Source of the DNA: a virus
Lineage: Duplodnaviria > Caudoviricetes
Virus record (IMG/VR): IMGVR_UViG_3300034106_004043
Length of the DNA: 64,000 nucleotides
Direction: 5' to 3' (one strand)
Below, piece after piece: positions 45,824 through 63,984 of the stretch. The notes under the pieces were generated by a model. That model saw nothing but the letters and a program-made list of their open reading frames with translations, was not told where the DNA came from and searched no databases. The position numbers and the translations under genes are program-made. Position 1 is the first letter of the stretch, and the number at the start of each line of letters is the position of its first letter.

Positions 45824-45833
45824 AATTAAATTT

Positions 45834-46706
45834 TTACCAACACTGTATTATTACTAAACCATCACCTCCACGTCCTCCTGTCCCTCCAACACCTGTAGGT
45901 GTGGTACCAGCACCACCACCTCCACCACCAGTACCAATGTTTCCATCACCACCTGCTCCACCTGAAGCAGGTGTAGTACCACCTCCTCCACCACCACTTC
46001 CTGCAATAGAATAGAATGGGGTTAATGAAAATACCCCTACACTACCTGCACCACCTGACTGTCCTCCAGTATTTGTAGGGACTATACCTGCACCTGTTAA
46101 ATTTCCTCCATTTGTTGGTGTGGTAGCTCCTGCCGCCATACCCCCTCCACCAGCACCCCCATATAACATACCAAGAGAACCCCATGTAAGTGAAGTTCCA
46201 TTAGTTGTTGTCCCTGCACCTCCACCAAGGCCTGCAATTGTTGTCCAAACTCCAATCGTTGAGTATAATGCGTCTGCAACGTTAGCGGTGGAGCCTCCAT
46301 TACCAGCAGTTGCTCCATTACCTCCAGTACCACCTGAAGTGGTTATAATACGTGTATATATATCAGTATTACCAGGAACAGGCATATCAACAAATGTAGG
46401 ACCTCCATTACTTCCAGCTCCTCCACTCGATACTCCCCCAGCACCTCCAGTACCTACATTTATTATCAAAGAATCTGTTATAAAAATTTCAGGAATAATT
46501 AATCTAGTTAAACATCCACCTCCACCACCTCCACCTCCTGACCTATTATTTGCAGATGAGTTAGTAGCACCACCAGCTCCCCCACCACCAGCACTAATAG
46601 CAGTAATGGATATCATAGTTATACCTTGAGGTTTTATCCAAGTTCCTGACTGATAAAACACTTGTGTTTTATAACTATAATCAGCTAAATCATATACAAA
46701 ACTCAT
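45834..46706 (-). CDS. glycine-rich domain protein, paralogue 2 (putative adhesin)
   Basis: PQGITMISI..ISAGGGG and GGDGLVIIQCW. Confidence 0.8.
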   Translation of the reverse strand: MSFVYDLADYSYKTQVFYQSGTWIKPQGITMISITAISAGGGGAGGATNSSANNRSGGGGGGGGCLTRLIIPEIFITDSLIINVGTGGAGGVSSGGAGSNGGPTFVDMPVPGNTDIYTRIITTSGGTGGNGATAGNGGSTANVADALYSTIGVWTTIAGLGGGAGTTTNGTSLTWGSLGMLYGGAGGGGMAAGATTPTNGGNLTGAGIVPTNTGGQSGGAGSVGVFSLTPFYSIAGSGGGGGGTTPASGGAGGDGNIGTGGGGGGAGTTPTGVGGTGGRGGDGLVIIQCW

Positions 46707-46718
46707 ATTACATACAAA

Positions 46719-47621
46719 TTACCAACAAGTTATTATTACCATCCCAGGTCCTCCATCTCCACCACTACCACGTGTGGTTCCTGAACCCCCACCTCCTCCT
46801 CCACAACCAATTTCACCTTTTCCACCATTACCAGCAGTTCCAAGAGCAAAAGAACCACCACCAGCTCCTCCTAATGAGAAAAAAGGTAAGTTTATAAAAA
46901 TACCACTTGCCCCATTATTTGTTCCACCACCCGCACCTCCTGTCATTGTTGGGATTGTTGCACTTCCGGTAATATTACCACCGGCGAAATTTGCGTCAGC
47001 CGCACTTTTTCCTCCTCCAGCAGCTCCGCCTGTTATTGGTAATCCTGACGACGCAACAGTTATTGAACCTCCAGCGGCAGCATTGACACCTCCCGCACCT
47101 GCTTGTCCAGCGATAGACACAAAAGTACCCATTGTTAGATAAATTGCGTTTCCTTGAGTTGCAATTGCTCCTGCACCTCCACCGGCAGAGGAAGCACCAG
47201 CAGCACCTACGTTTCCACCTGAACCCGCGGCCGCGAATACTACACGAGTTTGGATAGCAGTCGTATCCCCTCTTGCGATATCAACATATGTCGACGCACC
47301 ATTCGCGCCTCCTGAACCTCCTGTACCACCCGTACCTCCAGCACCAACAGTTACTTTTAAACTTTCAGATAATAAAATAGCAGGTATTGTTAATCGAGTT
47401 ATTGCCCCCGAACCACCACCACTACCGCCTGAAGCCGCAGTACCCGTAGATTGGTTACCCGAAGCTCCTCCTCCTCCAGCACCAATAGCCGTGATATGTA
47501 CCATAGTAATACCTCTTGGTTTAACCCAATAAAAAGTACTTAAAGAGGCATTGGTACCTATTGTCCCTGTATAGATTTTAGTGTGATATTGATTGTCAGC
47601 TAAATTGTAATAGTCAATCAT
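46719..47621 (-). CDS. glycine-rich domain protein, paralogue 1 (putative adhesin)
   Basis: PRGITMVHI..IGAGGGG and GGPGMVIITCW. Confidence 0.8.
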   Translation of the reverse strand: MIDYYNLADNQYHTKIYTGTIGTNASLSTFYWVKPRGITMVHITAIGAGGGGASGNQSTGTAASGGSGGGSGAITRLTIPAILLSESLKVTVGAGGTGGTGGSGGANGASTYVDIARGDTTAIQTRVVFAAAGSGGNVGAAGASSAGGGAGAIATQGNAIYLTMGTFVSIAGQAGAGGVNAAAGGSITVASSGLPITGGAAGGGKSAADANFAGGNITGSATIPTMTGGAGGGTNNGASGIFINLPFFSLGGAGGGSFALGTAGNGGKGEIGCGGGGGGSGTTRGSGGDGGPGMVIITCW

Positions 47622-47627: not shown

Positions 47628-47813
47628 TTAAGCCCATGATGGTCTTGGAGGGTTTGAATCAACAACTCGGTATCCGAAATTTATTGTCAAATCTAAAGTA
47701 TTACCGTCTAAATCGGTTAATCTTAAACATTGTCCTGCCATCCAATCTATTTCCATATATCCCATAGATACTGGCGAACCGTATTCAAATTGTATTAATT
47801 GGTATATTAACAT
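47628..47813 (-). CDS. hypothetical protein (61 aa)
   Basis: ORF track; stop/start overlap with the upstream gene. Confidence 0.65.
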   Translation of the reverse strand: MLIYQLIQFEYGSPVSMGYMEIDWMAGQCLRLTDLDGNTLDLTINFGYRVVDSNPPRPSWA

Positions 47814-48232
47814 TAGTAGTCCCCTCCTATAACCGTTGCGTCAATACCACCAGCGGCTGCGGCACCGATTGTTACATAAATTATATAATTAGGAGGTAAA
47901 GCAAACATAAGTGGTAATTCATAGTTGGTTGACGCTGCGTTGGTAACAAATGTTGCATTTGCCGCAATTGTTATTTCATCAAATAAAGTGTTATTAGCTG
48001 CGGTAGTAGTTGTTGAACCATTATTAATCCAAACACGACCAACAGTTGCCGCCGAATTTGCACCTGTATGTCTAAATCTTATTTTTTGCACATAACTCCC
48101 TTCGGTACCTGCGGTAAAAACAGGATAAACTGTACCTGAGGTTAAATCTCCCGTATTATTCGCAGCCGTAATGCTAACATTCCACATAATCTCAGGTCTT
48201 AGTGTAAAAATTGGTGCTGTATTTGCTGGCAT
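47813..48232 (-). CDS. hypothetical beta-rich protein (139 aa), probably fibre-associated
   Basis: ORF track; directly downstream of the giant repeat gene, with TATTTAT upstream. Confidence 0.7.
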   Translation of the reverse strand: MPANTAPIFTLRPEIMWNVSITAANNTGDLTSGTVYPVFTAGTEGSYVQKIRFRHTGANSAATVGRVWINNGSTTTTAANNTLFDEITIAANATFVTNAASTNYELPLMFALPPNYIIYVTIGAAAAGGIDATVIGGDY

Positions 48233-48268: not shown

Positions 48269-51200
48269 TTATATAAAGTTAAAATTGTTTGCTGTTGTAT
48301 AAACAAGTCCTAATGTGAATGTTCCACCCGCAGCTCCTGCAGCTCCTGAGGTACCTGATGAACCAGTAATACCCGATGAACCTGAAGTACCTGATGAACC
48401 TGATGTTCCAGATGTACCGTTAACAATAATAGTAACTGCACATACGTCATTTACTGTAAGTGTTGTATCACCACCATTTGTATATAATGCACCTGTAAAC
48501 AAATAATCACTACCACTTACACTTACATTGTTGAAGTAGTAAATATCAATTTTATTTGAACCATTTAAATTAAAAATTAAATATACAATCCCTTGTGTTC
48601 CAACTAAGTTTAAAAAATAATCACTTAAATCTGCTGAGTCAGCAGTTACTACGTCAAATTTCAAATCATACACCGCTACACCCGCTCCTTGATAAGTAAA
48701 TTGACCTGAAGCAGGTGCACCTCCTGTCCCACCACCGTATTGGTATTGAAGACCACCTTTATTACCTTGACTACCTGATGTGCCTGATGAACCACTTGTT
48801 CCTCTTGAACCCGTACTTCCGCTAGACCCCGAACTACCTGAAGAACCCGAACTTCCACTAGAACCACTTGTTCCCGATGAACCTGAAGAACCTGAACTAC
48901 CAGATGAACCTGATGTGCCAGAACTACCTGATGAACCACTTGAACCTGATGTTCCTGAGCTTCCGCTTGTCCCTGAAGAACCAAAACCTGATGAACCAGA
49001 TGTTCCACTAATACCATCTAATCCGCTTGTTCCTGATGAACCTGAACCTGAGCTACCTGATGAACCAGCACTTCCTGAAGAACCGCTAGTTCCACTACTT
49101 CCTGTAATACCTGAAGAACCTGAGCTTCCACTTGAACCTGATGAGCCAGAAGAACCTGATGTTCCTGAACTACCGCTAGTACCCGAAGAACCTGTATTAC
49201 CGCTTGAACCTGAACTTCCTGAAGAACCGCTAGTTCCTGAGCTACCACTTGTACCTGTACTACCCGATGAACCCGAACTTCCTGAAGAACCACTTGTTCC
49301 TGATGAACCTGATGTACCAGAACTTCCAGTATTACCTGACGAGCCTGAACTACCCGCACTTCCACTTGAACCTGATGTTCCTGAGCTTCCACTTGTTCCT
49401 GATGAACCTGTATTACCAGAACTACCACTACTTCCTGAAGAACCACCTGACCCTGATGTACCCGAAGAACCAGATGTTCCTGAGCTACCACTTGAACCTG
49501 AAGTTCCACTCGTTCCTCTTGACCCTGTACTACCAGATGAACCAGAACTACCACTAGAACCTGATGACCCACTACTACCTGAAGTTCCTGAAGAACCGCT
49601 AGTTCCACTTGACCCAGCACTTCCACTAGAACCTGAACTTCCGCTTGACCCCGAACTACCTGAAGAGCCTGATGTACCACTTGAACCAGAAGTTCCTGAT
49701 GAACCACTATTACCCGAAGAACCTGAGCTTCCACTTGAGCCAGAAGACCCTGATGTTCCTGATGAACCGCTAGTACCAGATGAACCTGTGTTTCCACTTG
49801 ACCCTGAACTACCAGCACTTCCTGAAGAACCACTTGTCCCTACTGAACCTGAAGTACCAGCACTACCGCTAGAACCAGAACTACCTGTACTACCACTTGA
49901 GCCTGATGTTCCAGAACTACCACTTGTTCCTGTACTACCCGATGAACCGCTAGTTCCTGAAGTACCACTTGTTCCTCTTGAGCCTGTACTTCCGCTAGAA
50001 CCCGAAGACCCACTTGAGCCTGAACTTCCAGCACTTCCTGAAGAACCACTTGTACCTACCGAACCTGAAGTACCAGCACTACCGCTAGAACCACTACTTC
50101 CACTTGAACCAGATGAACCTGACGTTCCACTACTACCAGATGCCCCTGAACTTCCACTAGACCCTGACGAGCCACTTGAACCAGAAGAACCGCTAGAACC
50201 TGAAGTCCCTGATGAACCAGAGCTACCTGATGTTCCGCTACTTCCATTAGCACCTGATGTACCAGCAGAGCCAGAACTACCACTACTTCCCGAAGAACCT
50301 GAACTTCCACTTGTACCAGATGTTCCCGAACTTCCGTTAACTCCTGATGTTCCTGAACTACCACTTGAACCTGATGAACCAGCACTTCCTGATGAACCAC
50401 TTGACCCAGATGTTCCACTGCTTCCATTAGCACCTGATGTACCAGCACTTCCTGAAGAACCAGTTGAACCTGAACTTCCACTAGAACCACTACTACCTGA
50501 TGTTCCACTACTTCCATTGGCTCCAGATGTTCCTGATGAACCTGAACTACCACTTGAACCCGAACTACCACTTGAGCCAGAAGAACCTGATGTACCAGAG
50601 CTACCATTAGAACCAGAAGTTCCTGAAGACCCACTTGAACCTGAGCTACCTGATGTTCCCGATGTTCCTGAGGTTCCTGAAGAACCACTAGTACCTCTTG
50701 AACCCGTACTACCCGATGACCCTGAACTACCACTACTTCCACTAGAACCTGATGTTCCAACAGAACCAGAACTACCGCTACTTCCACTTGAACCAGATGA
50801 ACCACTTGAGCCAGATGTTCCTGAACTACCATTAGCACCTGATGTACCAGAACTTCCAGCACTACCACTAGAACCTGAAGAACCACTAGACCCTGAACTT
50901 CCTGATGTTCCACTTGAACCAGAAGAACCTGTACTTCCTGAACTACCACTTGAACCAGATGTCCCAGTTGAACCTGAACTTCCTGATGAACCAGCACTTC
51001 CGCTAGACCCCGAACTACCTGATGTTCCACTGCTTCCATTGGCCCCCGATGTACCACTACTTCCTGAGCTTCCAGCACTACCGCTAGAACCTGACGAACC
51101 ACTTGTACCTGAAGAACCGTTAGTTCCAGATGTTCCCGACGAACCTGAAGAACCACTAGAACCTGAAGAACCTGATGTACCCGAAGTACCTGATGTTCCT

Positions 51201-54200
51201 CTTGAACCAGTACTTCCTGAAGAACCTGAACTACCACTACTTCCTGAACTTCCACTCGTACCAGCACTTCCTGATGAACCAGAACTTCCTGATGAACCGC
51301 TAGAACCTGATGTTCCAACGGAACCAGAACTACCACTTGAACCAGATGTTCCTGAACTTCCATTAGCACCTGATGTACCCGCAGAGCCAGATGACCCTGA
51401 ACTACCACTACTTCCTGAAGAACCACTTGTACCTGAACTTCCGTTAGCTCCCGATGTACCTGATGAACCACTACTTCCTGAGCTTCCGGATGACCCCGAA
51501 CTACCTGATGTACCAACAGAGCCAGAACTTCCTGAACTTCCAGTACTACCGCTAGACCCTGACGAACCACTTGTTCCTGACGAACCTGATGTTCCGCTAC
51601 TACCCGATGAACCTGAACTACCAGCACTTCCTGAAGAGCCACTTGTCCCTACTGAACCTGAAGTACCAGCACTACCACTAGAACCACTACTACCTGATGT
51701 ACCACTAGTACCCGATGTTCCTCTTGAACCTGTAGAACCTGAACTTCCGGATGAACCACTTGAACCAGAACTTCCTGAAGAACCAGATGTACCTGATGTT
51801 CCACTATTTCCTGAACTACCACTAGTACCGTTTGTACCATCAACACCACTTAATCCTGATGAACCCGAAGTACCAACAGAACCTGAACTCCCACTACTAC
51901 CCGATGAACCAGAACTTCCTGATGTACCATTTGAACCAGATGTTCCTGAACTACCACTAGTTCCTGAAGTACCGCTAGTTCCTCTTGAACCTGTACTACC
52001 AGATGACCCTGAACTTCCACTAGAACCCGATGAACCGCTAGACCCTGAAGAACCACTAGTTCCACTTGAACCTGAGCTTCCTGAAGTACCTGTACTACCC
52101 GATGAACCAGAACTTCCTGAACTACCACTAGAACCAGTACTTCCCGAAGTTCCTGATGTCCCGCTTGTACCTACAGAACCTGACGTTCCTGAGCTTCCAG
52201 TACTACCGCTAGAACCTGATGAACCTGATGTTCCACTACTACCTGATGTTCCAGTACTTCCACTTGAACCTGAACTACCACTTGAGCCAGAAGAACCAGC
52301 ACTACCTGATGTTCCTGTACTTCCTGACGAACCACTTGAGCCAGTACTTCCTGACGAACCAGATGTTCCAACACTTCCGCTTGAGCCTGATGTTCCACTA
52401 GTACCTACACTACCTGAAGTACCACTTGTACCCGATGTACCTACAGAACCCGAAGAACCTGAACTTCCACTAGTCCCCGAAGTACCTACCGAACCACTAG
52501 TCCCCGATGTTCCTGATGAACCAGATGTTCCTGACGTTCCGCTAGTTCCTGACGAACCAGAAGTTCCACTTGTTCCTCTAGAACCTGTTGAACCAGAACT
52601 TCCGCTTGAGCCTGAGCTTCCTGAAGAACCCGTACTACCACTTGAGCCAGATGAACCTGAAGTACCAGATGAACCACTTGTTCCACTACTTCCTGAACTA
52701 CCCGTTGAACCTGATGACCCACTACTACCTGAAGTTCCTGAACTTCCGCTAGTTCCCGATGTACCTGATGAACCAGAACTACCGCTAGACCCTGAACTTC
52801 CACTACTTCCTGATGTACCTGCAGAACCAGATGACCCTGAACTACCACTACTTCCACTAGAACCTGATGTTCCACTTGTACCAGTACTCCCTGAAGAACC
52901 TGATGAGCCACTACTTCCACTCGAACCTGAAGTACCAGTTGAACCCGAACTTCCACTTGTACCAGTACTCCCTGATGACCCCGCACTACCACTTGAGCCA
53001 GAGCTTCCAGATGTTCCACTAGTACCTACTGAACCTGAAGTTCCTGAAGAACCAGACGAACCTACTGAACCTGACGTTCCTGAAGTACCAACACTTCCAG
53101 ATGAACCTGATGTTCCGCTAGTTCCTCTAGAACCTGTTGAACCAGAACTTCCTGATGAACCTGAAGTTCCACTACTCCCTGATGAACCCGCACTACCACT
53201 TGAGCCAGAGCTTCCAGATGTTCCACTACTACCTGAAGTACCAACAGAACCGCTAGACCCTGACGAGCCAGCACTACCTGATGAACCTGAAGTTCCGCTT
53301 GTACCTACTGAACCCGAACTACCTGAAGAACCTGAACTTCCACTTGAGCCAGCAGAACCTGATGTTCCTGAAGAACCATTAACCCCTGATGTACCAGCAC
53401 TTCCCGCAGAACCTGATGAACCAGTACTTCCTGAGCTTCCAGCACTACCGCTAGAACCTGACGAACCACTTGTTCCTGATGAACCGCTAGTTCCAACACT
53501 ACCACTTGAACCTGATGACCCACTTGAACCAGAAGTTCCAGATGTTCCTACACTTCCACTTGTACCTGCAGAACCTGAACTTCCACTACTTCCTGATGTT
53601 CCCGAACTACCTGAAGAACCGGATGTACCTACACTACCACTAGTTCCTGAAGTACCGCTAGTTCCTCTTGAACCTGTACTACCTGAAGAGCCAGATGACC
53701 CAGAACTTCCTGAAGAACCGCTAGAACCTGAACTACCGCTAGTTCCGCTTGACCCTGATGAACCGCTAGTACCTGATGAACCGCTAGTACCTGATGTACC
53801 AACACTACCACTTGAACCAGAAGAACCTGAACTACCACTAGTCCCTGATGTACCAACACTTCCTGAACTTCCAGCACTACCGCTAGAGCCTGAAGAACCG
53901 GATGTGCCTACACTTCCCGATGAACCACTACTTCCGCTTGACCCAGATGTACCAACAGAACCAGAACTACCACTTGTTCCAGCACTACCACTAGAACCGC
54001 TACTACCTGATGTTCCTGAAGAACCGCTAGTTCCTGTTGAACCTGAACTTCCAGATGACCCAGTACTTCCCGAAGAGCCGCTAGTACCAGATGAACCCGT
54101 ACTACCACTTGAGCCTGAACTTCCTGATGTACCACTTGTACCTACTGAACCTGAGGTTCCACTTGTTCCTACACTTCCAGATGAACCTGAACTTCCACTT

Positions 54201-57200
54201 GAACCAGACGAACCTGAATTACCACTAGTTCCGCTTGACCCTGTACTTCCGCTAGAACCTGAACTTCCACTTGAACCAGAAGAACCGCTAGTACCTACGC
54301 TACCTGATGACCCTGATGTTCCCGAACTACCACTAGAACCTGAAGTTCCAGAACTTCCTGAACTACCAGTCGAGCCAGAACTTCCTGATGAACCACTACT
54401 ACCGCTAGTACCTGAACTACCCGTACTTCCAGATGAACCTGAAGTTCCCGATGTACCTACACTACCACTTGAACCTGATGTTCCAGTACTTCCTGACGTA
54501 CCACTTGTCCCAACACTTCCTGATGTACCACTAGAACCTGATGTTCCTGAAGAACCGCTAGTTCCTCTTGAACCTGTTGACCCTGAACTTCCTGATGAAC
54601 CAGAACTTCCACTTGAACCGGATGAGCCACTTGTACCTGATGAACCGCTAGTTCCAACACTTCCACTTGAACCAGAACTTCCTGAACTTCCACTTGTACC
54701 AGATGTACCTGACGAACCTGATGTCCCAACAGAACCAGAACTTCCTGAGCTTCCAGCACTTCCGCTAGAACCTGACGAACCACTTGAACCTGATGTACCT
54801 GAACTTCCGTTAGCACCTGATGTACCCGACGAACCACTTGAACCAGATGACCCCGTACTTCCACTACTTCCTGAAGAACCAGAAGTTCCAGAACTTCCGC
54901 TTGTTCCTACACTACCACTAGACCCTGAAGAACCACTTGAACCAGATGTTCCACTAGTTCCAGAAGTACCAACACTACCACTTGAGCCAGATGTTCCGCT
55001 AGTTCCTACACTACCTGAAGAACCTGATGTTCCACTAGTACCTACACTACCCGATGAACCTGATGTTCCAACACTACCACTTGAACCTGAACTACCTGAA
55101 GAACCAGAACTACCTGATGTTCCTGAGGTTCCAGTACTTCCACTAGAACCTGCACTTCCTGAAGAACCACTTGAACCTGATGTACCAGAAGTTCCAACGC
55201 TACCACTACTACCTGAACTTCCACTTGAGCCGGTAATACCTGAAGTTCCACTTGAACCTGAACTACCTGATGAACCGCTAGTCCCTGTTGAACCAGAGGT
55301 TCCACTAGTTCCTGTACTTCCGCTAGAGCCTGAACTACCGCTAGTACCTACACTACCCGACGTACCAGAGCTTCCTGAAGACCCTGTACTTCCACTTGTA
55401 CCTGATGTTCCAGTTGAACCACTTGTTCCTGAAGTCCCCGTTGAACCTGATGTACCACTAGTTCCTGTACTTCCACTTGAACCGCTAGTTCCTGAAGTAC
55501 CCGATGTTCCTCTTGAACCTGTAGAACCTGAACTTCCGGATGAACCACTTGAACCAGAACTTCCTGAAGAACCAGATGTTCCTACACTTCCACTTGTACC
55601 AGCTGAACCTGAACTACCAGAACTTCCTGAAGACCCACTAGAACCTGATGTTCCTGAAGAACCACTTGTACCTACTGAACCTGAACTTCCTGAAGAGCCA
55701 CTTGTACCTACTGAACCTGAACTTCCAGCACTACCACTAGACCCTGAACTTCCACTGCTTCCATTGGCTCCCGATGTACCTGATGAACCAGAAGTTCCGC
55801 TAGAACCTGATGAACCAGAAGTTCCCGAAGTGCCTGATGTTCCACTTGTACCACGACTTCCTGTAGAACCAGAACTTCCTGATGAACCAGTACTACCACT
55901 ACTTCCTGACGTACCACTAGTACCACTTGAGCCAGATGTTCCTGAAGAACCTGAGCTTCCAGCACTACCACTACTTCCACTTGTTCCCGTAGAACCTGAA
56001 CTACCAGCACTACCGCTAGACCCTGAACTTCCACTACTTCCTGATGTACCAGCCGAACCACTTGTTCCTGTAGACCCAGACGAACCACTTGAACCCGAAC
56101 TTCCTGAAGAACCACTTGAACCTGTTGAGCCAGAAGAACCTGAGGTTCCTGAACTACCACTTGAGCCACTAGTTCCAGTACTTCCCGAAGAACCTGAAGT
56201 ACCTACACTTCCTGACGAGCCAGATGTTCCTGAACTTCCAGTACTACCACTTGAACCCGAAGTACCACTTGTACCTGAGCTTCCAGCGCTTCCGCTAGAA
56301 CCTGACGAACCACTAGTTCCTGAAGTACCCACACTTCCCGAACTTCCACTTGAACCTGAAGACCCAGTTGAACCCGATGTTCCACTTGTACCTGAACTTC
56401 CACTATTTCCTGACGAACCGCTAGAACCTGACGTTCCACTAGTACCCGAAGTTCCTGATGTACCAACACTACCAGATGAACCTGAACTACCTGATGTTCC
56501 TGAGGTTCCATTAGTGCCGCTTGAACCAGATGTTCCTACACTTCCTGAGCTTCCACTAGTACCTGAAGTACCTACACTTCCTGAGGAACCAGATGTTCCG
56601 CTTGTACCTACAGAACCACTTGTTCCTGAAGAACCTGACGTACCAGTAGAACCACTTGTTCCTGAAGAACCTGACGTACCAGTAGAACCACTTGAACCTG
56701 TGCTACCGCTAGAACCTGACGTTCCTGAGCTTCCAGCGCTACCGCTAGAACCTGATGAACCACTTGTTCCAGATGTTCCGCTAGTTCCTACTGAACCAGA
56801 CGTTCCACTAGTTCCAACAGAACCAGAACTTCCTGATGTTCCGCTAGTTCCTCTTGAACCCGTACTACCTGAAGAACCAGAACTTCCCGATGAACCGCTA
56901 GTACCTGAACTACCTGTTGAACCTGAACTTCCACTTGAGCCAGATGAACCTGAAGTACCACTTGTTCCTACACTTCCACTTGTACCGGCAGAACCAGAAC
57001 TTCCCGATGAACCACTTGTTCCTGATGTGCCAGAAGTTCCAACACTTCCACTAGAACCAGATGTTCCGCTACTTCCTGAACTACCTGAAGACCCACTTGA
57101 ACCTGAAGTTCCGCTAGTACCTGTAGTTCCTGATGAACCACTAGTACCTGAAGAACCTGATGTCCCACTTGTTCCCGCAGTTCCTGAAGAACCTGAAGAA

Positions 57201-60200
57201 CCTGAAGTTCCACTTGAACCGCTAGTTCCCGATGTTCCTGTTGTACCTGAAGTTCCGCTTGTACCTGACGAACCTGAAGTTCCACTTGTTCCTGTAGTAC
57301 CGCTTGTGCCTGATGAACCTGACGTTCCACTCGTACCTGAAGAACCACTAGTTCCCGATGTTCCTGTTGTTCCGCTAGTTCCTGAGGAGCCTGAAGTACC
57401 ACTTGTACCTGAACTACCCGATGTTCCACTTGTTCCTGCAGTACCACTAGTTCCTGACGAACCGCTAGTACCACTCGTTCCTGATGAACCTGATGTTCCT
57501 GAAGTACCACTTGAACCTGAAGTTCCGCTAGTACCTGAAGAACCACTTGTTCCGCTTGTACCTGTTGTACCTGATGTTCCTGAACTTCCCGATGTTCCGC
57601 TAGTTCCCGAAGAACCACTTGTACCTGAGGTACCTGTAGTCCCACTTGTTCCTGAAGAACCTGATGTACCACTTGTACCTGTTGTCCCTGATGAACCACT
57701 AGTTCCAGAAGTTCCACTTGAGCCTGATGTTCCGCTTGTTCCTGAAGAACCTGATGTCCCACTTGTTCCACTTGAACCGCTAGTTCCCGATGTTCCTGTT
57801 GTACCCGAAGTTCCTGATGAACCTGAAGTTCCGCTTGTACCTGTTGTTCCGCTAGTACCTGAAGAACCACTTGTACCTGACGAACCTGAAGTTCCACTTG
57901 TTCCTGAAGAACCACTAGTTCCCGATGTTCCTGTTGTACCCGAAGTTCCTGAACTACCCGAAGTTCCGCTAGTCCCTGTTGTTCCACTTGAACCTGATGT
58001 TCCACTTGTTCCCGAAGTACCACTTGAACCTGACGTTCCGCTAGTTCCTGATGTTCCACTTGTTCCTGTTGTACCGCTAGTTCCTGAAGAACCTGAAGTA
58101 CCACTAGAACCTGAAGTTCCGCTAGTACCACTTGTTCCTGATGAACCTGAAGTTCCACTAGTACCTGTAGTACCTGATGTACCACTAGAGCCACTTGTAC
58201 CCGATGAGCCTGAAGTACCACTTGTACCCGTAGTGCCTGATGTACCACTTGAACCTGAAGTTCCGCTTGTTCCTGACGAACCTGAAGTTCCGCTAGTACC
58301 TGTAGTACCTGATGAACCGCTAGTACCACTTGTTCCTGAACTACCTGAAGTACCACTTGTTCCTGTAGTACCGCTAGTTCCTGAAGAACCTGATGTACCA
58401 CTCGTACCTGAAGAACCCGAAGTTCCGCTAGTACCCGATGAACCTGAAGTTCCACTTGTTCCTGTAGTACCGCTAGTTCCTGACGAACCCGAAGTTCCGC
58501 TAGTTCCTGATGTTCCTGAAGAACCGCTAGTTCCACTTGAACCCGATGTTCCACTCGTACCCGATGAGCCTGAAGTACCACTTGTTCCTGTAGTACCACT
58601 TGTTCCCGATGAACCTGATGTTCCGCTTGTGCCTGAAGAGCCTGATGTTCCGCTTGTTCCCGTAGTACCTGATGTCCCACTAGAACCTGAAGTTCCGCTA
58701 GTCCCTGATGAACCCGAGGTACCTGAAGTACCACTTGTTCCTGAAGAACCTGACGTACCACTCGTACCTGTAGTTCCAGATGTGCCTGAAGAACCACTTG
58801 TACCACTACTTCCTGATGTTCCTGAAGAACCGCTAGTACCCGATGTACCCGAGCTACCTGATGTACCGCTCGTACCCGATGAGCCTGAACTACCACTTGT
58901 ACCTGAACTACCACTTGAGCCAGATGTACCATCACTACCACTAGACCCTGAACTTCCTGACGTGCCACTTGAACCTGAAGTTCCTGATGAACCAGTTAAA
59001 CCAGAACTACCTGATGAACCTGAACTACCAGTAGAACCTGATGTACCACTACTTCCTGAAGAACCTGTTGTTCCACTTGTACCACTAGTACCACTAGTAC
59101 CAGCACTTCCTGAAGAACCTGAAGAACCTGTTGTTCCACTTGTACCACTAGTACCTGCACTTCCTGAAGAACCTGATGTTCCACTAGTACCATTAGTTCC
59201 TGAAGTACCCGAACTTCCCGAAGAACCAGATGTACCTGTAGTCCCACTAGTTCCTGATGTTCCTGAAGAACCAGAACTTCCCGATGAACCACTTGTTCCT
59301 GTTGTTCCACTAGTACCTGAACTGCCACTTGAACCATTTACCCCACTACTACCTGAACTACCACTTGAACCACTAATTCCTGAAGAACCTGATGTTCCCG
59401 ATGAACCACTTGTTCCGCTTTCACCTGATGTTCCTGACGAACCACTTGTCCCGCTTTGTCCTGATGTTCCACTTGAACCACTTGTCCCGCTTTGTCCTGA
59501 TGTTCCACTTGAACCTGTTAATCCACTACTACCTGACGAACCTGTTGAGCCAGAGCTACCACTAGTACCAGTACTACCTGATGTACCCGATGAACCACTT
59601 GAACCTGAACTTCCCGATGAACCACTTGAACCTGAAGTTCCTGAACTTCCGCTTGTACCAGAACTTCCCGAAGAACCTGACGTTCCACTTGTTCCCACAC
59701 TTCCTGAAGAACCTGAGGAGCCAGATGTTCCTGATGTACCCGAAGAACCTCCAGTACCTGATAGTCCTGATGAACCACTTGTACCTGATGTTCCACTTGC
59801 ACCATCAACACCATTAATACCTGATGTTCCAGCACTACCTGAACTACCGCTAGTTCCAGTACTTCCCGAAGAACCGCTATCCCCTGATGAACCAGACGTT
59901 CCACTTGTTCCTGATGTACCCGCAGAACCAGAACTACCTGATGAACCAGAACTACCTGAAGTTCCACTTGTACCTGCTGAACCTGAAGAACCAGAGCTAC
60001 CTGAAGAACCACTTGTACCCGCAGAACCTGATGTTCCAGAACTACCATTAGAACCAGATGCCGTAATACCTGTTACAGAAATAATAGTTCCATCACTATT
60101 ATATAATTCTAATGTACTTGTACCTGAAAAATAAGTACCACCCGTTAATTCAGTACCTTGAGCAAAAACTCTCCATCTCGCATTTTCTCTTGTAACACCA

Positions 60201-60676
60201 CTAACACCTTCAATAGTTGAGCCTGTCCAAGCATTAATAAATGCCTGACCTTCAGGTGTATTATTCTTTATAATAGTTTCGTAAGATAATTGAGTTACAG
60301 AATTAGCACTTACTGCAGCATCCCATAAATCATTGTAATTGTCTATTTGATATTGATATGCCGTTTCAGTTTCATTAACCCAAACAATCATACCCAATCT
60401 TCTTCTACCCGAAGAGAAATTGTCAGAATTTAAAGTTAAATATGTTGGAGAAAATGTACCGTTACCAATGTTAATATTAATAGGTATATTATTAACACTT
60501 AATTGTTGTTGTCCTTGCCCACTAAATGTTAAACCTAAATTAGTAAGGTATGCCGCCTCTTGCCATCCACCAACATTTAAAACATTAAAATTGGTTCCGT
60601 ATGGACTTGTTCTCGCTACACTGAAAGGTCCTGTAATTTGGGACGCACTTATTGGATTTTGATACGGTATTGCCAT
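48269..60676 (-). CDS. giant Gly-X-Y repeat protein (4135 aa; X and Y mostly Ser/Thr), putative fibre
   Basis: Unique N-terminal domain of about 205 aa, then about 3760 aa of GSS/GTS/GST/GSA/GSV triplets with no Pro, a unique domain of about 110 aa, a short second repeat and a short C-terminus. Co-oriented with its neighbours and has an ATG start. Confidence 0.85.
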   Translation of the reverse strand: MAIPYQNPISASQITGPFSVARTSPYGTNFNVLNVGGWQEAAYLTNLGLTFSGQGQQQLSVNNIPININIGNGTFSPTYLTLNSDNFSSGRRRLGMIVWVNETETAYQYQIDNYNDLWDAAVSANSVTQLSYETIIKNNTPEGQAFINAWTGSTIEGVSGVTRENARWRVFAQGTELTGGTYFSGTSTLELYNSDGTIISVTGITASGSNGSSGTSGSAGTSGSSGSSGSSGSAGTSGTSGSSGSSGSSGSAGTSGTSGTSGSSGDSGSSGSTGTSGSSGSAGTSGINGVDGASGTSGTSGSSGLSGTGGSSGTSGTSGSSGSSGSVGTSGTSGSSGSSGTSGSSGTSGSSGSSGSSGSSGSSGTSGSTGTSGSSGSTGSSGSSGLTGSSGTSGQSGTSGSSGTSGQSGTSGSSGTSGESGTSGSSGTSGSSGISGSSGSSGSSGVNGSSGSSGTSGTTGTSGSSGSSGSSGTSGTSGTTGTSGSSGSSGTSGTNGTSGTSGSSGSAGTSGTSGTTGSSGSSGSAGTSGTSGTSGTTGSSGSSGTSGSTGSSGSSGSSGLTGSSGTSGSSGTSGSSGSSGSDGTSGSSGSSGTSGSSGSSGTSGTSGSSGTSGTSGSSGTSGSSGTSGSSGTSGTTGTSGTSGSSGTSGTSGTSGSSGTSGTSGSSGTSGTTGTSGTSGSSGTSGTSGSSGTSGTTGTSGTSGSSGTSGTSGSSGTSGSSGTSGTSGTSGSSGTSGTTGTSGTSGSSGTSGTSGSSGTSGTSGSSGTSGTTGTSGTSGSSGTSGTSGSSGTTGTSGTSGSSGTSGTSGSSGTSGTTGTSGTSGSSGTSGSSGTSGTTGTSGTSGSSGTSGTSGTSGSSGTSGSSGTSGTTGTSGTSGTSGTSGSSGTSGTSGTSGSSGTTGTSGTSGSSGTSGTTGTSGTSGSSGTSGTSGSSGTSGSSGTSGTTGTSGTSGSSGTSGTTGTSGTSGSSGTSGTSGSSGTSGTSGSSGTSGTSGSSGTTGTSGTSGSSGTSGTTGTSGTSGSSGTSGTSGSSGTSGTTGTSGTSGSSGTSGTSGSSGTSGTSGSSGTSGTSGSSGTSGTAGTSGTSGSSGTSGTSGSSGTSGTTGTSGTSGSSGTSGTSGSSGTSGTTGTSGTSGSSGTSGTSGTTGTSGTSGSSGTSGSSGSSGTAGTSGTSGSSGTSGSSGTTGTSGTSGSSGSSGSSGSSGTSGSSGSVGTSGTSGTSGSSGSSGSAGTSGSVGTSGTSGSSGSSGSSGSTGSSGTSGSSGSSGSSGSTGSRGTSGTSGSSGSVGTSGTSGSVGTSGTSGTSGSSGSSGSAGSSGTSGSSGSTGSSGSTGTSGSSGTSGSTGTSGSSGTSGSVGTSGTSGSSGSVGTSGTSGSSGSVGTSGSSGTNGTSGTSGSSGSSGSVGTSGTSGTSGTSGSSGSSGNSGSSGTSGTSGSTGSSGSSGSSGSVGTSGTSGSSGSSGSAGSSGTSGTSGSSGSTGSSGTSGSSGSVGTSGSSGSTGTSGSSGSSGTSGSSGSTGSSGSSGSSGSSGSSGSTGTSGSAGTSGSSGSSGSSGSAGSSGSTGTSGSSGSAGSSGSSGTSGSSGTSGTSGSSGSTGSSGSSGSTGSRGTSGTSGTSGTSGSSGSSGTSGSSGTSGANGSSGSSGSSGSAGSSGSVGTSGSSGSSGSVGTSGSSGTSGSSGSSGSSGSSGSAGTSGSVGTSGSSGSSGSSGSSGSSGSTGSRGTSGTSGTSGSSGSTGTSGTSGSTGTSGTSGSTGTSGTSGSTGSSGSSGTSGSVGTSGSSGSSGSTGTSGTSGSTGTSGSSGSSGSSGTSGITGSSGSSGSSGSVGTSGTSGSSGSSGSAGSSGSTGTSGTSGSSGSSGSSGSSGSVGTSGSSGSVGTSGTSGSSGSVGTSGTSGSSGSVGTSGTSGTSGSSGSSGSSGSVGTSGSSGTSGSSGSSGSTGSSGSSGSSGTSGANGSSGTSGSSGSSGSSGSAGSSGSSGSVGTSGSSGTSGTSGSSGSSGSSGSVGTSGSSGTSGSSGSSGSSGSSGSSGSTGSRGTSGSSGTSGSSGTSGSVGTSGTSGSTGTSGSSGSVGTSGTSGSSGSTGSSGTSGSSGSSGSSGSTGSSGSSGTSGSSGSSGTSGSSGSVGTSGSSGSSGSSGSSGSTGSSGTSGNSGSSGSSGSSGSSGSVGTSGTSGSVGTSGTSGSSGSSGSTGSSGTSGSSGSTGSSGSSGSTGTSGSSGTSGSSGSSGSAGTSGSSGSVGTSGSSGSSGSSGSVGTSGSSGSSGSAGSSGSVGTSGTSGSSGSSGSSGSVGTSGTSGSSGTSGSSGSSGTSGSSGSSGSSGSSGSSGSSGSTGSRGTSGTSGTSGSVGTSGSSGSSGTSGSSGSSGSAGTSGSVGTSGTSGSSGSSGSSGSVGTSGSSGTSGSSGSSGSAGSSGSTGSSGSAGSAGTSGVNGSSGTSGSAGSSGSSGSSGSSGSVGTSGTSGSSGSAGSSGSSGSVGTSGSSGTSGSSGSSGSAGSSGSSGTSGSSGSSGSTGSRGTSGTSGSSGSVGTSGTSGSVGSSGSSGTSGSVGTSGTSGSSGSSGSAGSSGSTGTSGSSGSTGTSGSSGSSGSSGSSGSTGTSGTSGSSGSSGSSGSSGSAGTSGSSGSSGSSGSSGSSGTSGTSGSSGTSGSSGSSGSTGSSGSSGTSGSSGTSGSSGSSGSTGSSGSSGSSGSSGSTGSRGTSGTSGSSGTSGTSGTSGSSGTSGTSGSVGTSGTSGSSGSSGSVGTSGTSGTSGSVGTSGTSGSSGSVGTSGSSGSTGSSGSSGSTGTSGSAGSSGSSGSSGSSGSTGTSGSSGTSGSSGSSGSTGSSGTSGSVGTSGTSGTSGSTGSSGSSGSSGSSGSTGTSGSSGSSGTSGSSGSSGSSGSSGSSGSSGSTGSRGTSGTSGTSGSSGTSGSNGTSGSSGSSGSSGSSGSVGTSGSSGLSGVDGTNGTSGSSGNSGTSGTSGSSGSSGSSGSSGSSGSTGSRGTSGTSGTSGSSGSSGSAGTSGSVGTSGSSGSAGSSGSSGSSGTSGSSGTSGSSGSSGSTGSSGSSGSVGTSGSSGSSGSSGSSGSSGTSGANGSSGTSGSSGSSGSSGSSGSAGTSGANGSSGTSGSSGSSGSVGTSGSSGSSGSSGSSGSAGTSGSSGSSGSSGSSGSTGSRGTSGTSGTSGSSGSSGSSGSSGTSGTNGSSGTSGSSGSSGSAGSSGSSGTSGANGSSGTSGSSGSSGSAGSSGSSGSTGTSGSSGSSGSTGSSGSSGTSGSSGSSGSSGSSGSAGSSGTSGANGSSGTSGSSGSSGSSGSSGSSGSVGTSGSSGSSGSSGSSGSTGSRGTSGSSGTSGTSGTSGSSGSSGSSGTSGSNGSSGTSGSSGSSGSSGSSGSSGSSGTSGANGSSGTSGSSGSSGSSGSTGSSGSAGTSGANGSSGTSGSSGSSGSAGSSGSSGSSGTSGVNGSSGTSGTSGSSGSSGSSGSSGSAGTSGANGSSGTSGSSGSSGTSGSSGSSGSSGSSGSSGSSGASGSSGTSGSSGSSGSSGSSGSAGTSGSVGTSGSSGSAGSSGSSGSSGSSGSTGSRGTSGTSGTSGSSGSTGTSGSSGTSGSSGSTGSSGSSGSAGTSGSVGTSGSSGSAGSSGSSGNTGSSGTSGSSGTSGSSGSSGSSGSSGNSGSSGTSGSSGTSGSSGSSGSSGSSGSSGSAGSSGTSGSSGTSGSSGSSGSSGSSGSSGSTGSRGTSGTSGSSGSSGTSGSSGTSGSGGSSGSSGSSGNTGSSGTSGSSGTSGSSGSAGSSGSSGNTGSSGTSGSSGTSGSSGSSGSSGSTGTSGSSGTSGSSGSSGSSGNTGSSGTSGSSGTSGSSGSSGSSGSSGSSGITGSSGTSGSSGSAGSSGSSGSGSSGTSGLDGISGTSGSSGFGSSGTSGSSGTSGSSGSSGSSGTSGSSGSSGSSGSSGTSGSSGSSGSSGSSGSSGSTGSRGTSGSSGTSGSQGNKGGLQYQYGGGTGGAPASGQFTYQGAGVAVYDLKFDVVTADSADLSDYFLNLVGTQGIVYLIFNLNGSNKIDIYYFNNVSVSGSDYLFTGALYTNGGDTTLTVNDVCAVTIIVNGTSGTSGSSGTSGSSGITGSSGTSGAAGAAGGTFTLGLVYTTANNFNFI
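48770..60060 (-). repeat. 9-nt-period low-complexity coding repeat (about 1250 Gly-X-Y triplets)
   Basis: On the plus strand, a CC dinucleotide recurs every 9 nt for about 11.3 kb; synonymous codons vary between units. Confidence 0.95.
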
Positions 60677-60705: not shown

Positions 60706-61914
60706 TTAGGTTTTATACACCCCTTTGAAATAATAATTATTTTTATCAGGAAGTTTTGGAGGTAACAATCCATCGTTAGACAAGTATAATACTCTATAAA
60801 TCCCCGCAGGTATTGCTCCACCTGGAGTTATTGTAATATCCCCAACCGAAATTTTAGGGTCAGGAGTTGCTAAAATATCAAAGTCACAAGGTTGTGATTG
60901 ATAACCAACATTTACTGTCATGTTATTTAAACTTTCATCAACACCCGCAAGTGGTATCCAAATCGTATACATGTACTGTAAACTAGTGTTAATAACACTA
61001 TTATCAACTTCAATTGTTTCAAAAGTATATTGGTTAATTAAACATCCAAATCTATCGTTAATTGTATTTGAAAATTGATTTATCGCACCTTTTAAATTTG
61101 TAGGTTTAACAAAGTTTCCTGTTCCACCTGTAAATCCTGAGTATGATGCGTATTTGTTCATCATATAACTGTAGTTTGGACTTGTTGGTAATGGAAGTGC
61201 TCCCGAATTACCCCATCCGTACCAATTAACACTAGTATCAGGTGTTATACCGTCCGATAAGTAATACATATAACTTCCTAATCCATATAACGAACCACTT
61301 CCCGAAGAATCTTGCGGTTCCGCAAATACGTAAGCGTAATATAGAGGTGTTGTAATTGATGGTGTTGGGGTAAATGTTGGTGTTGGTGTAGTTGTTGGCG
61401 TAGGTGTTGATGTTGCTGTCGGTGTTAAAGATAGAGTTGGTGTAACACTTGGAGTAATTGATGGTGTTGGAGTTGGTGTTGCCGGTAGAGCAGGTGCGTT
61501 ACAACAAGGTCTATCAATAATGTAAGGATTATTAGTCGGATAAGAGTAAGAGTTTAAACTAAAACTACTAAGAACACTTACATAAATTTTTTGAGGTAGT
61601 GGTATAATAACAATACCCTGAGATGATTGTTTTAAAAACTGAACTAAAAACTTACCTTCATTTTTTGTTTCTCTACTTGTGAATTGATAGTTCACATAAT
61701 AAGTAATATCTAAAGGATTAACAGTAGACGCACTTGTTGTAATATAACATTCTTTAGACGCTACAACATATTTCTTATTAAATTCGTCATATACCGAAAT
61801 TAAAATTGTATTACCCGAAATATTTTCATTTAAACCAAAATCACTTCTCCCGTCTTTTGATATCTCAACTTGGAAAACTGGTAACGTTGAATTTTTCTTA
61901 ATAAACCATTCCAT
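60706..61914 (-). CDS. putative structural protein: BppU-like N-terminal domain, Pro-Thr linker, unknown C-terminal domain
   Basis: MEWFIKKNSTLPV...YQFTSRETKNEGKFLVQF, shared with the upstream gene; TPTPTPS linker. ATG at 61914. Confidence 0.7.
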   Translation of the reverse strand: MEWFIKKNSTLPVFQVEISKDGRSDFGLNENISGNTILISVYDEFNKKYVVASKECYITTSASTVNPLDITYYVNYQFTSRETKNEGKFLVQFLKQSSQGIVIIPLPQKIYVSVLSSFSLNSYSYPTNNPYIIDRPCCNAPALPATPTPTPSITPSVTPTLSLTPTATSTPTPTTTPTPTFTPTPSITTPLYYAYVFAEPQDSSGSGSLYGLGSYMYYLSDGITPDTSVNWYGWGNSGALPLPTSPNYSYMMNKYASYSGFTGGTGNFVKPTNLKGAINQFSNTINDRFGCLINQYTFETIEVDNSVINTSLQYMYTIWIPLAGVDESLNNMTVNVGYQSQPCDFDILATPDPKISVGDITITPGGAIPAGIYRVLYLSNDGLLPPKLPDKNNYYFKGVYKT

Positions 61915-61915
61915 A

Positions 61916-62284
61916 TTAAATAGATACGTAACTATTACCAATTTTTATCGTTAGTTTTTCTCTGATTGGTAAAATATAAGTTCCTGTATCAGTGATAAAA
62001 ACAAACTCTCCTTCATAAAGTCCCTCTCTACTTGTATCGCTTGAAGTGAATTTATAATAAACATAGTATTCTGTCTCAGCATTTGGGTCAATAAATGTCT
62101 TTTCAACAAACCCTCCTTTCTTATTCAGAATTTTGTAACCCCCTGTTTTAACATCTATCATGGAAAAATAAATCAACGAGTTTTCTATCAGTGACATAAA
62201 CTCTGTTATGTCAGCAATACCATCTTTAACCACTTGCATTTTAAGAACAGGCAGTGTTGCACCTTTGTTAATAAAAAATTCCAT
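61916..62284 (-). CDS. putative structural protein, stand-alone BppU-like Ig domain
   Basis: MEFFINKGATLPVL...YKFTSSDTSREGLYEGEF...ILP; paralogous to the N-terminus of 60706..61914. Confidence 0.7.
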   Translation of the reverse strand: MEFFINKGATLPVLKMQVVKDGIADITEFMSLIENSLIYFSMIDVKTGGYKILNKKGGFVEKTFIDPNAETEYYVYYKFTSSDTSREGLYEGEFVFITDTGTYILPIREKLTIKIGNSYVSI

Positions 62285-62313: not shown

Positions 62314-63984
62314 TCAACATTCTTTCCTTAAATTACTATCATAATGTTCAAATCTATTATGTTCGGTAGGTGTGAGTAATAAAATACCTGGTTTTAATTT
62401 ACCTTTAATTGTGTTTTGGAAGTTGTGAGACATTAAAGTTTGTTCATACGGGTGTTGATATTTTGTCTCCAAATAACATTTATAACTCCCACTTTTTGAA
62501 AGAATTATCGGCCAATTACACAAATAGATTTCCCCTGACGCATAAGGTAAACCCTTATGTGTTTTTATCTCGTTGAATTTTGTTTTTGGAGCGTTCGGGT
62601 CTAATCCCTGTTGAGGTAGTTTTGGATTTTTTGGCCAATGTTGTTCTCTGAAATTTTGTGGTACATTATACCAACTCCATTGAGTACTATTATCACCATA
62701 AAACTCTGAAAAATTTAATTTTAAAAAATCAAAGTTTTCTTTATTAACTATCTCTAAACTTTTTTGATATAGATTACTTGCATACCTATTAAACCCATTT
62801 CTACACACTTCATTTTTTTGTGAATAAAAAAACATATCATCCTCAAAGAATAACATATAGTCCAACCCTGTTTCATCAAAATGTTCCGCAGTCCATTGTC
62901 TTCCACCTGTAATACCTATGTTATCTTTTTTAATATGTTCAAAATCATATTCTTTACAAAGTCTCAAGTATTCTTCTGTTGTTGATAGGTCAGTTGAGTT
63001 ATCCAATAAAAATTTCTTTGGTCTGTCTAAGAAATCCCTATCATATTCAATCATAGATTTAATTAATGTTTCAAATTGTTTTGGAGAATTGAATGTTATT
63101 ACATACAATGCAACTTTATCCATATCTAAGTCATTTTGAATTTTAACAAACTCTGTCTTTTTAACTAAAACATCATCTTTTAAATCCTCAAAGAATTTTC
63201 CAAATAAACCATTATATTCAATTTCAAAATAATTTATATATTCACTTAACTTATAAACCATTATTGAAAATATTGACTCCTCAGTTCCCATATACCCACT
63301 TGATAATGTATCATTCAATAGGTTATAGTATTCACCATTCATCTGTGATATGGTTTCTTTTGGTCCCCCAAAAAACCCACCTCGAGCAACTTTCTTCACA
63401 TCATCTTCAGCCCATTCATTAATCTTTGGATATGAAAATCCGTGTATCTCATTACTTGCGTCGTATGGAAAACAAACAAATGTAAACTTATCAATATACT
63501 TACTTAAATTATTTAAAACCTTATCGTGTGTGAAATATCCGGGATGAACAGTATTTGTAAGACCCGCATCAATCCAAAATAAAAACTCTGAATTAAATCT
63601 ATCAAAAATCCTTGCGTCGTTTAATAAAAACATTTTTGACATAACAAGTGGATTATACATTTCTAATCTACCTTGTGTTGATTCCTTTAACCAACCTGAT
63701 TGATTATACCATTCGGGATTGTTTCTGATTTGTTGTATTTTATTATAAAAGTCATTTTCAACAAACCAACTTTTATCTCTTAAAATAAATTGTGTATTAC
63801 TTTGGTCTCTTTTTTCCCAAACAAAATCTTCCAATTCTTTTTCACCAAAAATTATTAAGTTTTCTTCAACTTTTAATAGTTGTTCAAATTTTTCTAAATA
63901 ATGTGAAAAAGAACGAGACCAACCTTCTTCAAGATTTTCTCTACCAATATTCCACAATCCTGTAACTAATGTAATATTACTCAT
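62314..63984 (-). CDS. HtrL/YibB (WlaTC)-family glycosyltransferase fused to a GT-A-like domain
   Basis: ITLVTGLWNIGR, FWIDAG, GGFFGG and GTEESI (HtrL type). Second domain has YVITFN..., LDNSTD and FFEDDM. Confidence 0.7.
   Translation of the reverse strand: MSNITLVTGLWNIGRENLEEGWSRSFSHYLEKFEQLLKVEENLIIFGEKELEDFVWEKRDQSNTQFILRDKSWFVENDFYNKIQQIRNNPEWYNQSGWLKESTQGRLEMYNPLVMSKMFLLNDARIFDRFNSEFLFWIDAGLTNTVHPGYFTHDKVLNNLSKYIDKFTFVCFPYDASNEIHGFSYPKINEWAEDDVKKVARGGFFGGPKETISQMNGEYYNLLNDTLSSGYMGTEESIFSIMVYKLSEYINYFEIEYNGLFGKFFEDLKDDVLVKKTEFVKIQNDLDMDKVALYVITFNSPKQFETLIKSMIEYDRDFLDRPKKFLLDNSTDLSTTEEYLRLCKEYDFEHIKKDNIGITGGRQWTAEHFDETGLDYMLFFEDDMFFYSQKNEVCRNGFNRYASNLYQKSLEIVNKENFDFLKLNFSEFYGDNSTQWSWYNVPQNFREQHWPKNPKLPQQGLDPNAPKTKFNEIKTHKGLPYASGEIYLCNWPIILSKSGSYKCYLETKYQHPYEQTLMSHNFQNTIKGKLKPGILLLTPTEHNRFEHYDSNLRKEC

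Follow-up and report, generated by a model that had tools for sequence, protein, structure and literature searches.

What kind of structure could be built from a viral protein that places glycine at every third residue for well over a thousand triplets, with almost nothing except serine and threonine in between? The question is raised by a 64,000-nucleotide (nt) stretch of DNA from a virus (Duplodnaviria; Caudoviricetes; IMG/VR record IMGVR_UViG_3300034106_004043), the whole of which we refer to as the window. A giant gene on its minus strand (48269–60676) encodes 4,135 amino acids (aa; ~339 kDa unmodified), and is supported both by its translation and by the third-position substitutions that separate it from its orthologues. 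We consider it somewhat probable that the product is a virion fibre of a contractile-tailed jumbo phage whose trimeric collagen-like shaft, probably O-glycosylated, serves as a long capture line.

Layout and composition of the giant fibre gene

The minus-strand frame is open throughout its 4,135 codons and can be divided into seven parts. The N-terminal cap (N-cap; aa 1–207; 60056–60676) is a conserved fibre anchor domain of an uncultured-phage family, with 203 matching clusters. It leads into the main shaft (aa 208–3879; 49040–60055), in which 1,224 Gly-X-Y triplets follow one another unbroken, with Ser or Thr in X and mostly Ser in Y. A kink region (aa 3880–3898; 48983–49039) is flanked by two one-residue register slips and is followed by a second Gly-X-Y run of 26 triplets in shifted register (aa 3899–3976; 48749–48982). 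The remainder of the chain consists of a C-terminal knob of ~110 aa that is predicted to be mostly beta (aa 3977–4086; 48419–48748), a third run of 11 triplets, the last of which are Gly-Ala-Ala (aa 4087–4119; 48320–48418), and a hydrophobic 16-aa tail (…TFTLGLVYTTANNFNFI) that is conserved by orthologue identity and fills 48269–48319 together with the stop codon. An initial annotation of the window, made from the letters alone, had reported just two register breaks, and these are indeed single-residue deletions (G-S-G near aa 3877–3879 and G-F-G near aa 3897–3899, with 19 residues between them). It had also placed unique domains at both ends, which describes the 207-aa N-cap and the ~110-aa knob well and overlooks the third run and the 16-aa tail.

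The composition given in that annotation (Gly every third residue, X and Y nearly all Ser or Thr, no Pro and minimal charge) is borne out by the counts. Gly is missing at 0 of the 1,224 triplet positions of the main run, and charged residues make up 21 of the 3,767 residues of the repeat (0.56%), from which Lys is absent altogether. The repeat contains S 1764, G 1254, T 560, A 59, V 57, N 28, R 14, D 5 and Pro 0, and the whole chain offers 2,409 Ser and Thr residues. The most frequent triplets are GSS (552) and GTS (427). The two variable positions are not equivalent: in the main run X is S 730 times and T 458 times, and Y is S 992, T 94, V 52, A 47, N 20 and R 13 times. Thr is thus biased to X (458 vs. 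94), and Val, Ala, Arg and Asn are nearly confined to Y. All 13 Arg residues of the main run sit in Y inside the motif GSTGSRGTSG, which occurs 14 times in the protein; in host-guest studies of collagen, Arg placed at Y is strongly stabilising. An asymmetry of this kind between X and Y is what an ordered helix would be expected to show. No higher-order period emerged for the residues other than Ser and Thr when autocorrelation was taken up to 40 triplets, so that the shaft bears no mark of regular turns. When two 600-aa pieces of the shaft were compared with the Pfam Collagen hidden Markov model (HMM; PF01391 / IPR008160), they scored 283–289 bits against a cut-off of 27.2. It is clear that the Gly-X-Y pattern cannot be due to chance.

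As DNA, the gene is far less repetitive than its product. Among 17-aa peptide windows 67% recur, and the same windows recur as DNA in 0.7% of cases, which is about what is expected under fully random synonymous codon choice. All four Gly codons are in use (GGT 666, GGA 426, GGG 73, GGC 59), and Ser is spelled by the AGY and TCN codon families alike, at X as well as Y. We also observed that the guanine-plus-cytosine content of the fibre gene is 44–50%, compared to ~30% in its flanks. The opposite strand holds a second long frame (48780–60134, plus strand; 3,784 codons) made of Pro-(Glu/Asp)-(Leu/Val) triplets (P 1259, E 749, L 721, V 566), which we rejected as a gene and regard as the mirror of the Gly-Ser/Thr codons. 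The minus strand is taken as the coding strand because of the caps and the substitution pattern described next.

Selection and length variation among orthologues

Loci that share the N-terminal domain number 27 in IMG/VR. Three of them hold complete orthologues, namely G001 and G005 (2,429 and 2,435 aa) and G002 (4,766 aa, on a 240,759-bp contig). Their N-terminal caps are 98–100% identical and their C-terminal knobs 80–100% identical to those of the window protein, and the C-terminal tail is the same in G001 and G005 and has one residue changed in G002. A search for orthologues with the same caps and other repeat lengths was among the checks suggested by the initial annotation, and these three lengths are its positive outcome. 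Further away, a clade at 92% N-cap identity has a 1,998-aa fibre with a different C-terminus, and still more distant relatives are at least 3,337 aa long (the contig edge falls inside the gene), 1,290 aa long, or repeat-less. No phage in INPHARED matched the gene as DNA or as protein.

Substitutions were counted in colinear blocks between the window gene and its G001 and G002 orthologues. At Gly codons, positions 1–2 were changed at 0 of 1,228 sites, and position 3 at 61 of 612 sites. Positions 1–2 of the X and Y codons were changed at ~75 of ~2,430 sites. The fact that Gly positions 1–2 are unchanged while position 3 varies means that the frame is translated and that Gly is specifically protected. 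Judged by this comparison of sequences, the fibre frame is under purifying selection, with Gly invariant at every third residue.

Variants of unequal length occur together in lake metagenomes, and an in-register indel of 18 nt separates two copies of the short form. Such in-register length changes among near-identical phages suggest that length is under diversifying or fluctuating selection, or is mutationally labile. Three side observations concern the modular make-up of these fibres. The first is in G003, the phage of the clade at 92% N-cap identity, where an extra 2,636-aa open frame around G003:C1 70261–70404 (minus strand) ends in the same conserved tail region; since this phage also has the 1,998-aa fibre, two giant Gly-X-Y fibres may be encoded by a single genome. 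In G001, a near-identical phage, there is a second, short pair of genes (G001:C1:25870–28881; locus L002, 487–3498) that encodes a partner of 334 aa, again with a Thr/Pro linker, and a fibre of 665 aa, the latter sharing the N-cap at 49% identity and continuing into ~65 Ser/Thr triplets and a distal domain of ~260 aa. This pair fits an adaptor-plus-fibre module. Finally, the G002 orthologue (G002:C1:168785–183101; locus L041) has an extra 117-aa knob within its shaft (aa 3712–3828) that is 27% identical to the C-terminal knob, which implies that further knobs can be set into the shaft like beads.

The N-terminal cap family and the C-terminal knob

The identification of the protein as a phage fibre, which the initial annotation had put forward as a possibility, is supported by the N-cap. 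At E ≤ 0.001 this domain matched the representatives of 203 clusters built at 50% identity, and the match always covered residues ~1–210 of proteins of 105–2,196 aa. A second search gave more than 1,591 metagenomic relatives, certain of them on 320–343-kb contigs. The family is made up of uncultured phages only. Many members match tail-fibre, tail-spike or long-tail-fibre PHROGs (E down to 1e-31) in their distal parts; among the 59 full-length members, Peptidase_S74, the chaperone of endosialidase according to its Pfam description, is present in 4, and the Collagen HMM is passed by 3. At least 10 Gly-X-Y triplets occur in just 7 of 150 N-cap representatives. These triplets are likewise proline-free Gly-X-Ser, and include Gly-(Ile/Leu/Val/Phe/Gln)-Ser. 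A conserved N-terminal attachment module is thus combined with a variable distal part, as in a fibre. These matches show that the 207 residues of the N-cap form a module which is widespread among phage tail-fibre and tail-spike-like proteins and always occupies their N-terminus.

The initial annotation had also proposed a fold search of both caps, and this yielded little. The AlphaFold2 model of the N-cap has a predicted local distance difference test (pLDDT) score of 81.7, and it returned no solved-fold match in Foldseek against the PDB (best E 0.35) or in the wide VIA-align search (best Z 3.8). The N-cap profile gave only a chance-level match to PDB sequences, and BFVD contains a single homologue, which is uncharacterised. 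The C-terminal knob is rare, with one fragment among 5.8 billion proteins in a profile search and three distinct copies in the fetched loci (jackhmmer), one of them within the G002 shaft. Look-alikes of the knob in the Atlas are Uroviricota proteins, some from Collagen-repeat clusters, and serve as a lead only.

Neighbouring genes and phage type

The initial annotation had set the gene among structural genes. For the immediate neighbours, which are fibre-like, this is accurate; the rest of the window encodes glycosyl- and methyl-transferases, replication proteins, a sigma-70 factor, DnaJ, an SbcC-like protein and a DNA methylase, and no baseplate, tube, sheath or capsid gene was recognised inside the 64 kb.

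Upstream of the fibre gene, a partner gene (60706–61941, minus strand; 411 aa) ends 29 nt before the fibre start. Its product consists of an N-domain, a Thr/Pro-rich linker and a C-domain, and it has no Pfam or PHROG match. In 23 of 27 loci the sequence for the partner C-domain immediately precedes the N-cap gene, and the N-domain is swapped in distant loci. Nearly all of the ~45 aa of the linker (aa ~150–195) are Thr, Pro and Ser, resembling a mucin-type O-glycosylation tract, and the linker could be a second substrate for phage transferases. Next comes a 122-aa open reading frame (ORF; 61916–62284, minus strand) that is a paralogue of the partner N-domain (~30% identity) and appears in 12 loci as a second tblastn match upstream of the partner. 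It is followed by a 556-aa HtrL_YibB-family protein (62314–63984, minus strand) with a weak glucosyltransferase PHROG match; in the closest clade, this gene and the fibre module are syntenic.

Downstream, right after the fibre gene, lies a 139-aa ORF (47813–48232, minus strand) of phrog_20100 (function unknown) with no Pfam match, and then three paralogous Gly_rich_2 (PF21722) genes of 300, 290 and 302 aa (44915–47621, minus strand). The Gly_rich_2 paralogues match tail-fibre-assembly and minor-tail PHROGs, and the same array lies directly downstream of the orthologue in G002. By these matches they are candidate tip adhesins or fibre-assembly proteins. Two large genes, at 34592–37045 (plus strand; 817 aa) and 41497–44574 (minus strand; 1,025 aa), share phrog_15511 repeats and may encode further surface or structural proteins; the 817-aa product ends in a lactonase-type beta-propeller, and its gene is the sole sizeable plus-strand gene of the region.

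A cluster of glycosyltransferase and methyltransferase genes (GT1/GT4, GT2, GT9-like, FkbM and Methyltransf_24) occupies 3760–15654 on the minus strand. From gene context, its products are candidate modifiers of the Ser/Thr shaft. Relatives also have a glycosyltransferase of phrog_24687 upstream of the fibre, and synteny of the glycosyltransferase genes is limited to the closest clade. GT2 was found in two fragments with Gly-X-Y fibres and in 0 of 3 other small fragments (two of them with repeat-less fibres), in records too incomplete for this to be used as a count.

At 16097–17017 and 24808–25608 (both minus strand) the window also encodes a full DnaJ, in which the J, zinc-finger and C-terminal domains are all present, and a factor of the sigma-70 family. 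A host assignment through the DnaJ gene was tried and set aside as uninformative, with one weak J-domain match to an Anaerolineae metagenome-assembled genome. The genome size is estimated at ~290 kb (75 kb of G001 scored 26% complete, and 241 kb of G002 82%), and G002 carries a tail sheath gene ~53 kb from its fibre. The best explanation for the source of the window is an uncultured freshwater jumbo phage with a contractile tail.

Proposed structure of the shaft

In the reading that we prefer, the partner C-domain would dock the N-cap, and the interchangeable partner N-domain would plug the pair into the virion. Three chains would align at the C-terminal knob and tail and zip toward the N-terminus into a collagen-type triple helix. 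Having neither proline nor salt bridges, the helix would be held by dense Ser/Thr O-glycosylation through phage glycosyltransferases, by hydroxyl-water networks, or by the two together, and cool lake temperatures would favour its stability. Dense O-glycosylation is plausible given the many phage transferase genes. If fully extended at 0.29 nm per residue, ~1,270 triplets (~3,800 residues) would by calculation reach ~1.1 μm, the figure also given in the initial annotation, and the reach of an unmodified coil would be far smaller. The fibre would then act as a long, flexible first-contact line, much like the capture filament suggested in that annotation next to a hydrated brush, and would give a jumbo virion that is slow to diffuse in dilute lake water a wider capture radius, with contact made through the C-terminal knob or through the Gly_rich_2 proteins encoded just downstream. 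We favour a collagen-type homotrimer because Gly is protected, the preferences at X and Y differ, signals of turns are absent and relatives carry trimer-associated modules.

The stabilisation of such a helix can be narrowed down. According to a published analysis, collagen-like proteins of viruses and bacteria draw their stability from Pro, from Lys-Gly-Glu/Asp salt bridges, or from Thr triplets that are thought to be glycosylated (PMC11923368). With no Pro and almost no charge, only the last of these three routes is open to the shaft. It has been found that (Gly-Pro-Thr)10 is triple-helical only if galactosylated, and that glycosylated Thr can replace hydroxyproline (Hyp) (PMC11923368). We can go one step further and propose a collagen triple helix of more than 1 μm without imino acids or salt bridges, held by O-glycans or hydroxyl-water networks as a third stabilisation code, and forming an appendage several virion lengths long that is retuned by in-register indels. 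On balance, this extended version is doubtful.

Several points weigh against the collagen-type fibre. The shaft possesses neither element of the stabilising code of collagen (imino acids, or Lys-Gly-Glu/Asp salt bridges), and Gly/Ser-rich sequences are common flexible linkers. The AlphaFold2 model of the C-terminal knob, built from a 3-sequence alignment, has a pLDDT of 54.6 and is unreliable; it is too poor for a fold search, so that no trimerisation fold was identified in the knob. A trimer prediction for three copies of aa 3886–4135 scored 0.01 with a pLDDT of ~47, which is evidence neither way. The substrates of the phage glycosyltransferases could be DNA or host glycans in place of the shaft, and the in-register indels could reflect slippage on a 9-nt period instead of selection. 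In two RNA runs just 5–7% of the words of the gene were present. Finally, the whole 12.4-kb variant is spanned by no read or contig, the Logan contigs being 300–620 nt long.

The main rival keeps the virion fibre and replaces the helix by a disordered, heavily O-glycosylated, mucin-like tether or brush, in which the chains are joined only at globular nodes. Without stiffening by glycans, such a tether would extend over tens to a few hundred nm, and it might serve in hydration, anti-aggregation, sticking to particles or mucus, or shielding. The composition of the shaft does resemble that of flexible Gly/Ser linkers, lacking Pro and charge, the partner protein has a mucin-like Thr/Pro linker too, many glycosyltransferases are encoded nearby, and the structure tools return low confidence. 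A disordered linker has no need of strict Gly periodicity, however, yet Gly is replaced in none of the 1,224 triplets and its codons change only silently between orthologues. The residue preferences of X and Y differ, and the Gly-(Ile/Leu/Val/Phe/Gln)-Ser triplets of the relatives would be odd for a mucin. The shaft also falls outside the definition of mucin-like PTS domains, as Pro is absent and the period of 3 is strict. We therefore regard the disordered tether as unlikely, and as the alternative that most deserves attention.

Length, packing and location of the fibre

A further alternative is that the length of the window copy is a product of assembly, for example a chimera of co-occurring strains, and that the true gene is shorter (e.g., 2,429 aa). 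What speaks for this is the lack of a spanning read or contig noted above, together with the shortness of the Logan pieces, many of whose joints have sides of 18–24 nt that amount to repeat noise. In addition, many IMG/VR contigs end within the repeat, and length variants coexist in lakes. Against it, the longest exact repeat inside the gene is 84 nt and every 101-mer is single-copy, as is also the case for the 4,766-aa orthologue, which means that within a single strain no branching is expected in assembly graphs whose words exceed 84 nt. Three metagenomes each yielded the first 10.6 kb of the 4,766-aa form, in versions 1–3 nt apart, and the frame of the window gene stays open over 12.4 kb. 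Reads agree with this: in 18 lake-water runs, 77–89% of the 31-mers sampled from a 10-kb piece of the gene were present, and 4 of the 18 contained exact 300–620-nt pieces of the gene (Logan contigs) at a depth close to that of the flanks. The initial annotation had named a much shorter true repeat as one finding that would overturn its reading, and the unique 101-mers and the near-identical 4,766-aa form largely answer this concern. A simple assembly artefact is unlikely and the giant length as such is reproducible. A chimeric length for this particular copy seems improbable to us, and the exact 12.4-kb length of the window variant rests on its own assembly, as no contig spans the repeat.

The shaft could instead pack as polyglycine-II or polyproline-II bundles, as in the snow-flea antifreeze protein or gp38 of phage S16, and form a compact or sheet-like body. 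Proline-free Gly-X-X repeats with small residues are the sequence signature of polyglycine-II bundles, and the Gly_rich_2 genes adjoin the fibre gene. Known bundles consist of short helices joined by regular turns, though, and it is difficult to reconcile these with 1,224 unbroken triplets that show no period, so we hold this packing to be quite improbable.

A non-virion product that the infected cell displays or releases, such as a decoy or surface coat, is very improbable: capsid, baseplate and sheath genes were not recognised in the window, as it would allow, but tail-fibre, tail-spike and Peptidase_S74 modules accompany the N-cap in its family, synteny extends to the fibre-like neighbours, and the first 30 residues, judged by eye, contain no signal-peptide-like hydrophobic stretch.

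Comparison with known systems

Among the closest known systems are the collagen-like tail fibres of phages and prophages, such as EPclA of E. coli O157:H7 prophages (PMC3368898) and PHROG 1806 (‘collagen like minor tail’), in which a Gly-X-Y shaft lies between an N-terminal attachment part and a C-terminal globular part in the context of a trimeric fibre. The window protein is of a kind already known, since collagen-like segments are familiar from phage fibres and its shaft scores above the cut-off of the Pfam Collagen HMM. Shafts of the EPclA type have tens to ~100 triplets and are rich in Pro and charge (PMC3368898; PMC11923368), whereas the window shaft has ~1,270 triplets, no Pro and 0.56% charge. 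The new features are the absence of Pro, the near-zero charge, the dominance of Ser and Thr in X and Y, the run of more than 1,200 unbroken triplets, and orthologues of up to 4,766 aa. We found no description of proline-free Ser/Thr collagen-like phage fibres in the literature searched.

For collagen biophysics, the family provides a strongly selected natural Gly-X-Y polymer without imino acids or charge pairs, in a length series from 65 to ~1,400 triplets, and this series would be a direct test ground for triple-helix stability provided by glycans only. If the fibre reaches ~1 μm, models of adsorption for large, slow phages in dilute lake water would change, and the proposed modification, if true, would represent phage-encoded protein glycosylation on a scale so far undescribed. 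For materials, the gene is a natural case of complete codon scrambling in a repetitive protein.

As a phage, the source resembles the moraphages, which are freshwater jumbo phages with DnaJ/DnaK, core glycosyltransferases, contractile tails and predicted Bacteroidota hosts (PMC12619734). The shared traits are lake origin, a ~290-kb estimate, DnaJ, many glycosyltransferases and a sheath gene. The moraphage paper (PMC12619734) mentions fibres once and collagen not at all, and a 2026 review of jumbo phages likewise leaves collagen unmentioned. A precedent for the modification itself comes from mycobacteriophages (Freeman et al., 2023, in PMC12619734), which carry O-glycans on virion proteins and encode their own glycosyltransferases, as proposed here; there the glycans are on short C-terminal tails of capsid and tail-tube subunits, unlike a giant repeat shaft.

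BclA of the Bacillus anthracis/cereus exosporium nap offers a second comparison, being a bacterial spore protein of Gly-Pro-Thr triplets with Pro in X, whereas X in the window shaft is never Pro and Y is Ser 992 times and Thr 94 times. Its triplets number a few dozen at most, and its C-terminal domain is described as C1q/TNF-like. BclA shares with the window protein a hydroxy-amino acid in Y, a strain-variable repeat number and sugar-pathway genes nearby, and it forms a hair-like surface nap. BclA and the cuticle collagen of vent worms are cited as natural cases in which glycosylated Thr replaces Hyp (PMC11923368). The latter, from Riftia (Mann et al., 1996, in PMC11923368), is of micrometre scale and has mainly glycosylated Thr instead of Hyp in Y; it is an animal extracellular protein which retains Pro and charged residues, and its glycosylation is reported where that of the window shaft is only inferred. 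The cuticle collagen of Riftia is the best precedent for a glycan-stabilised triple helix such as we propose for the giant fibre.

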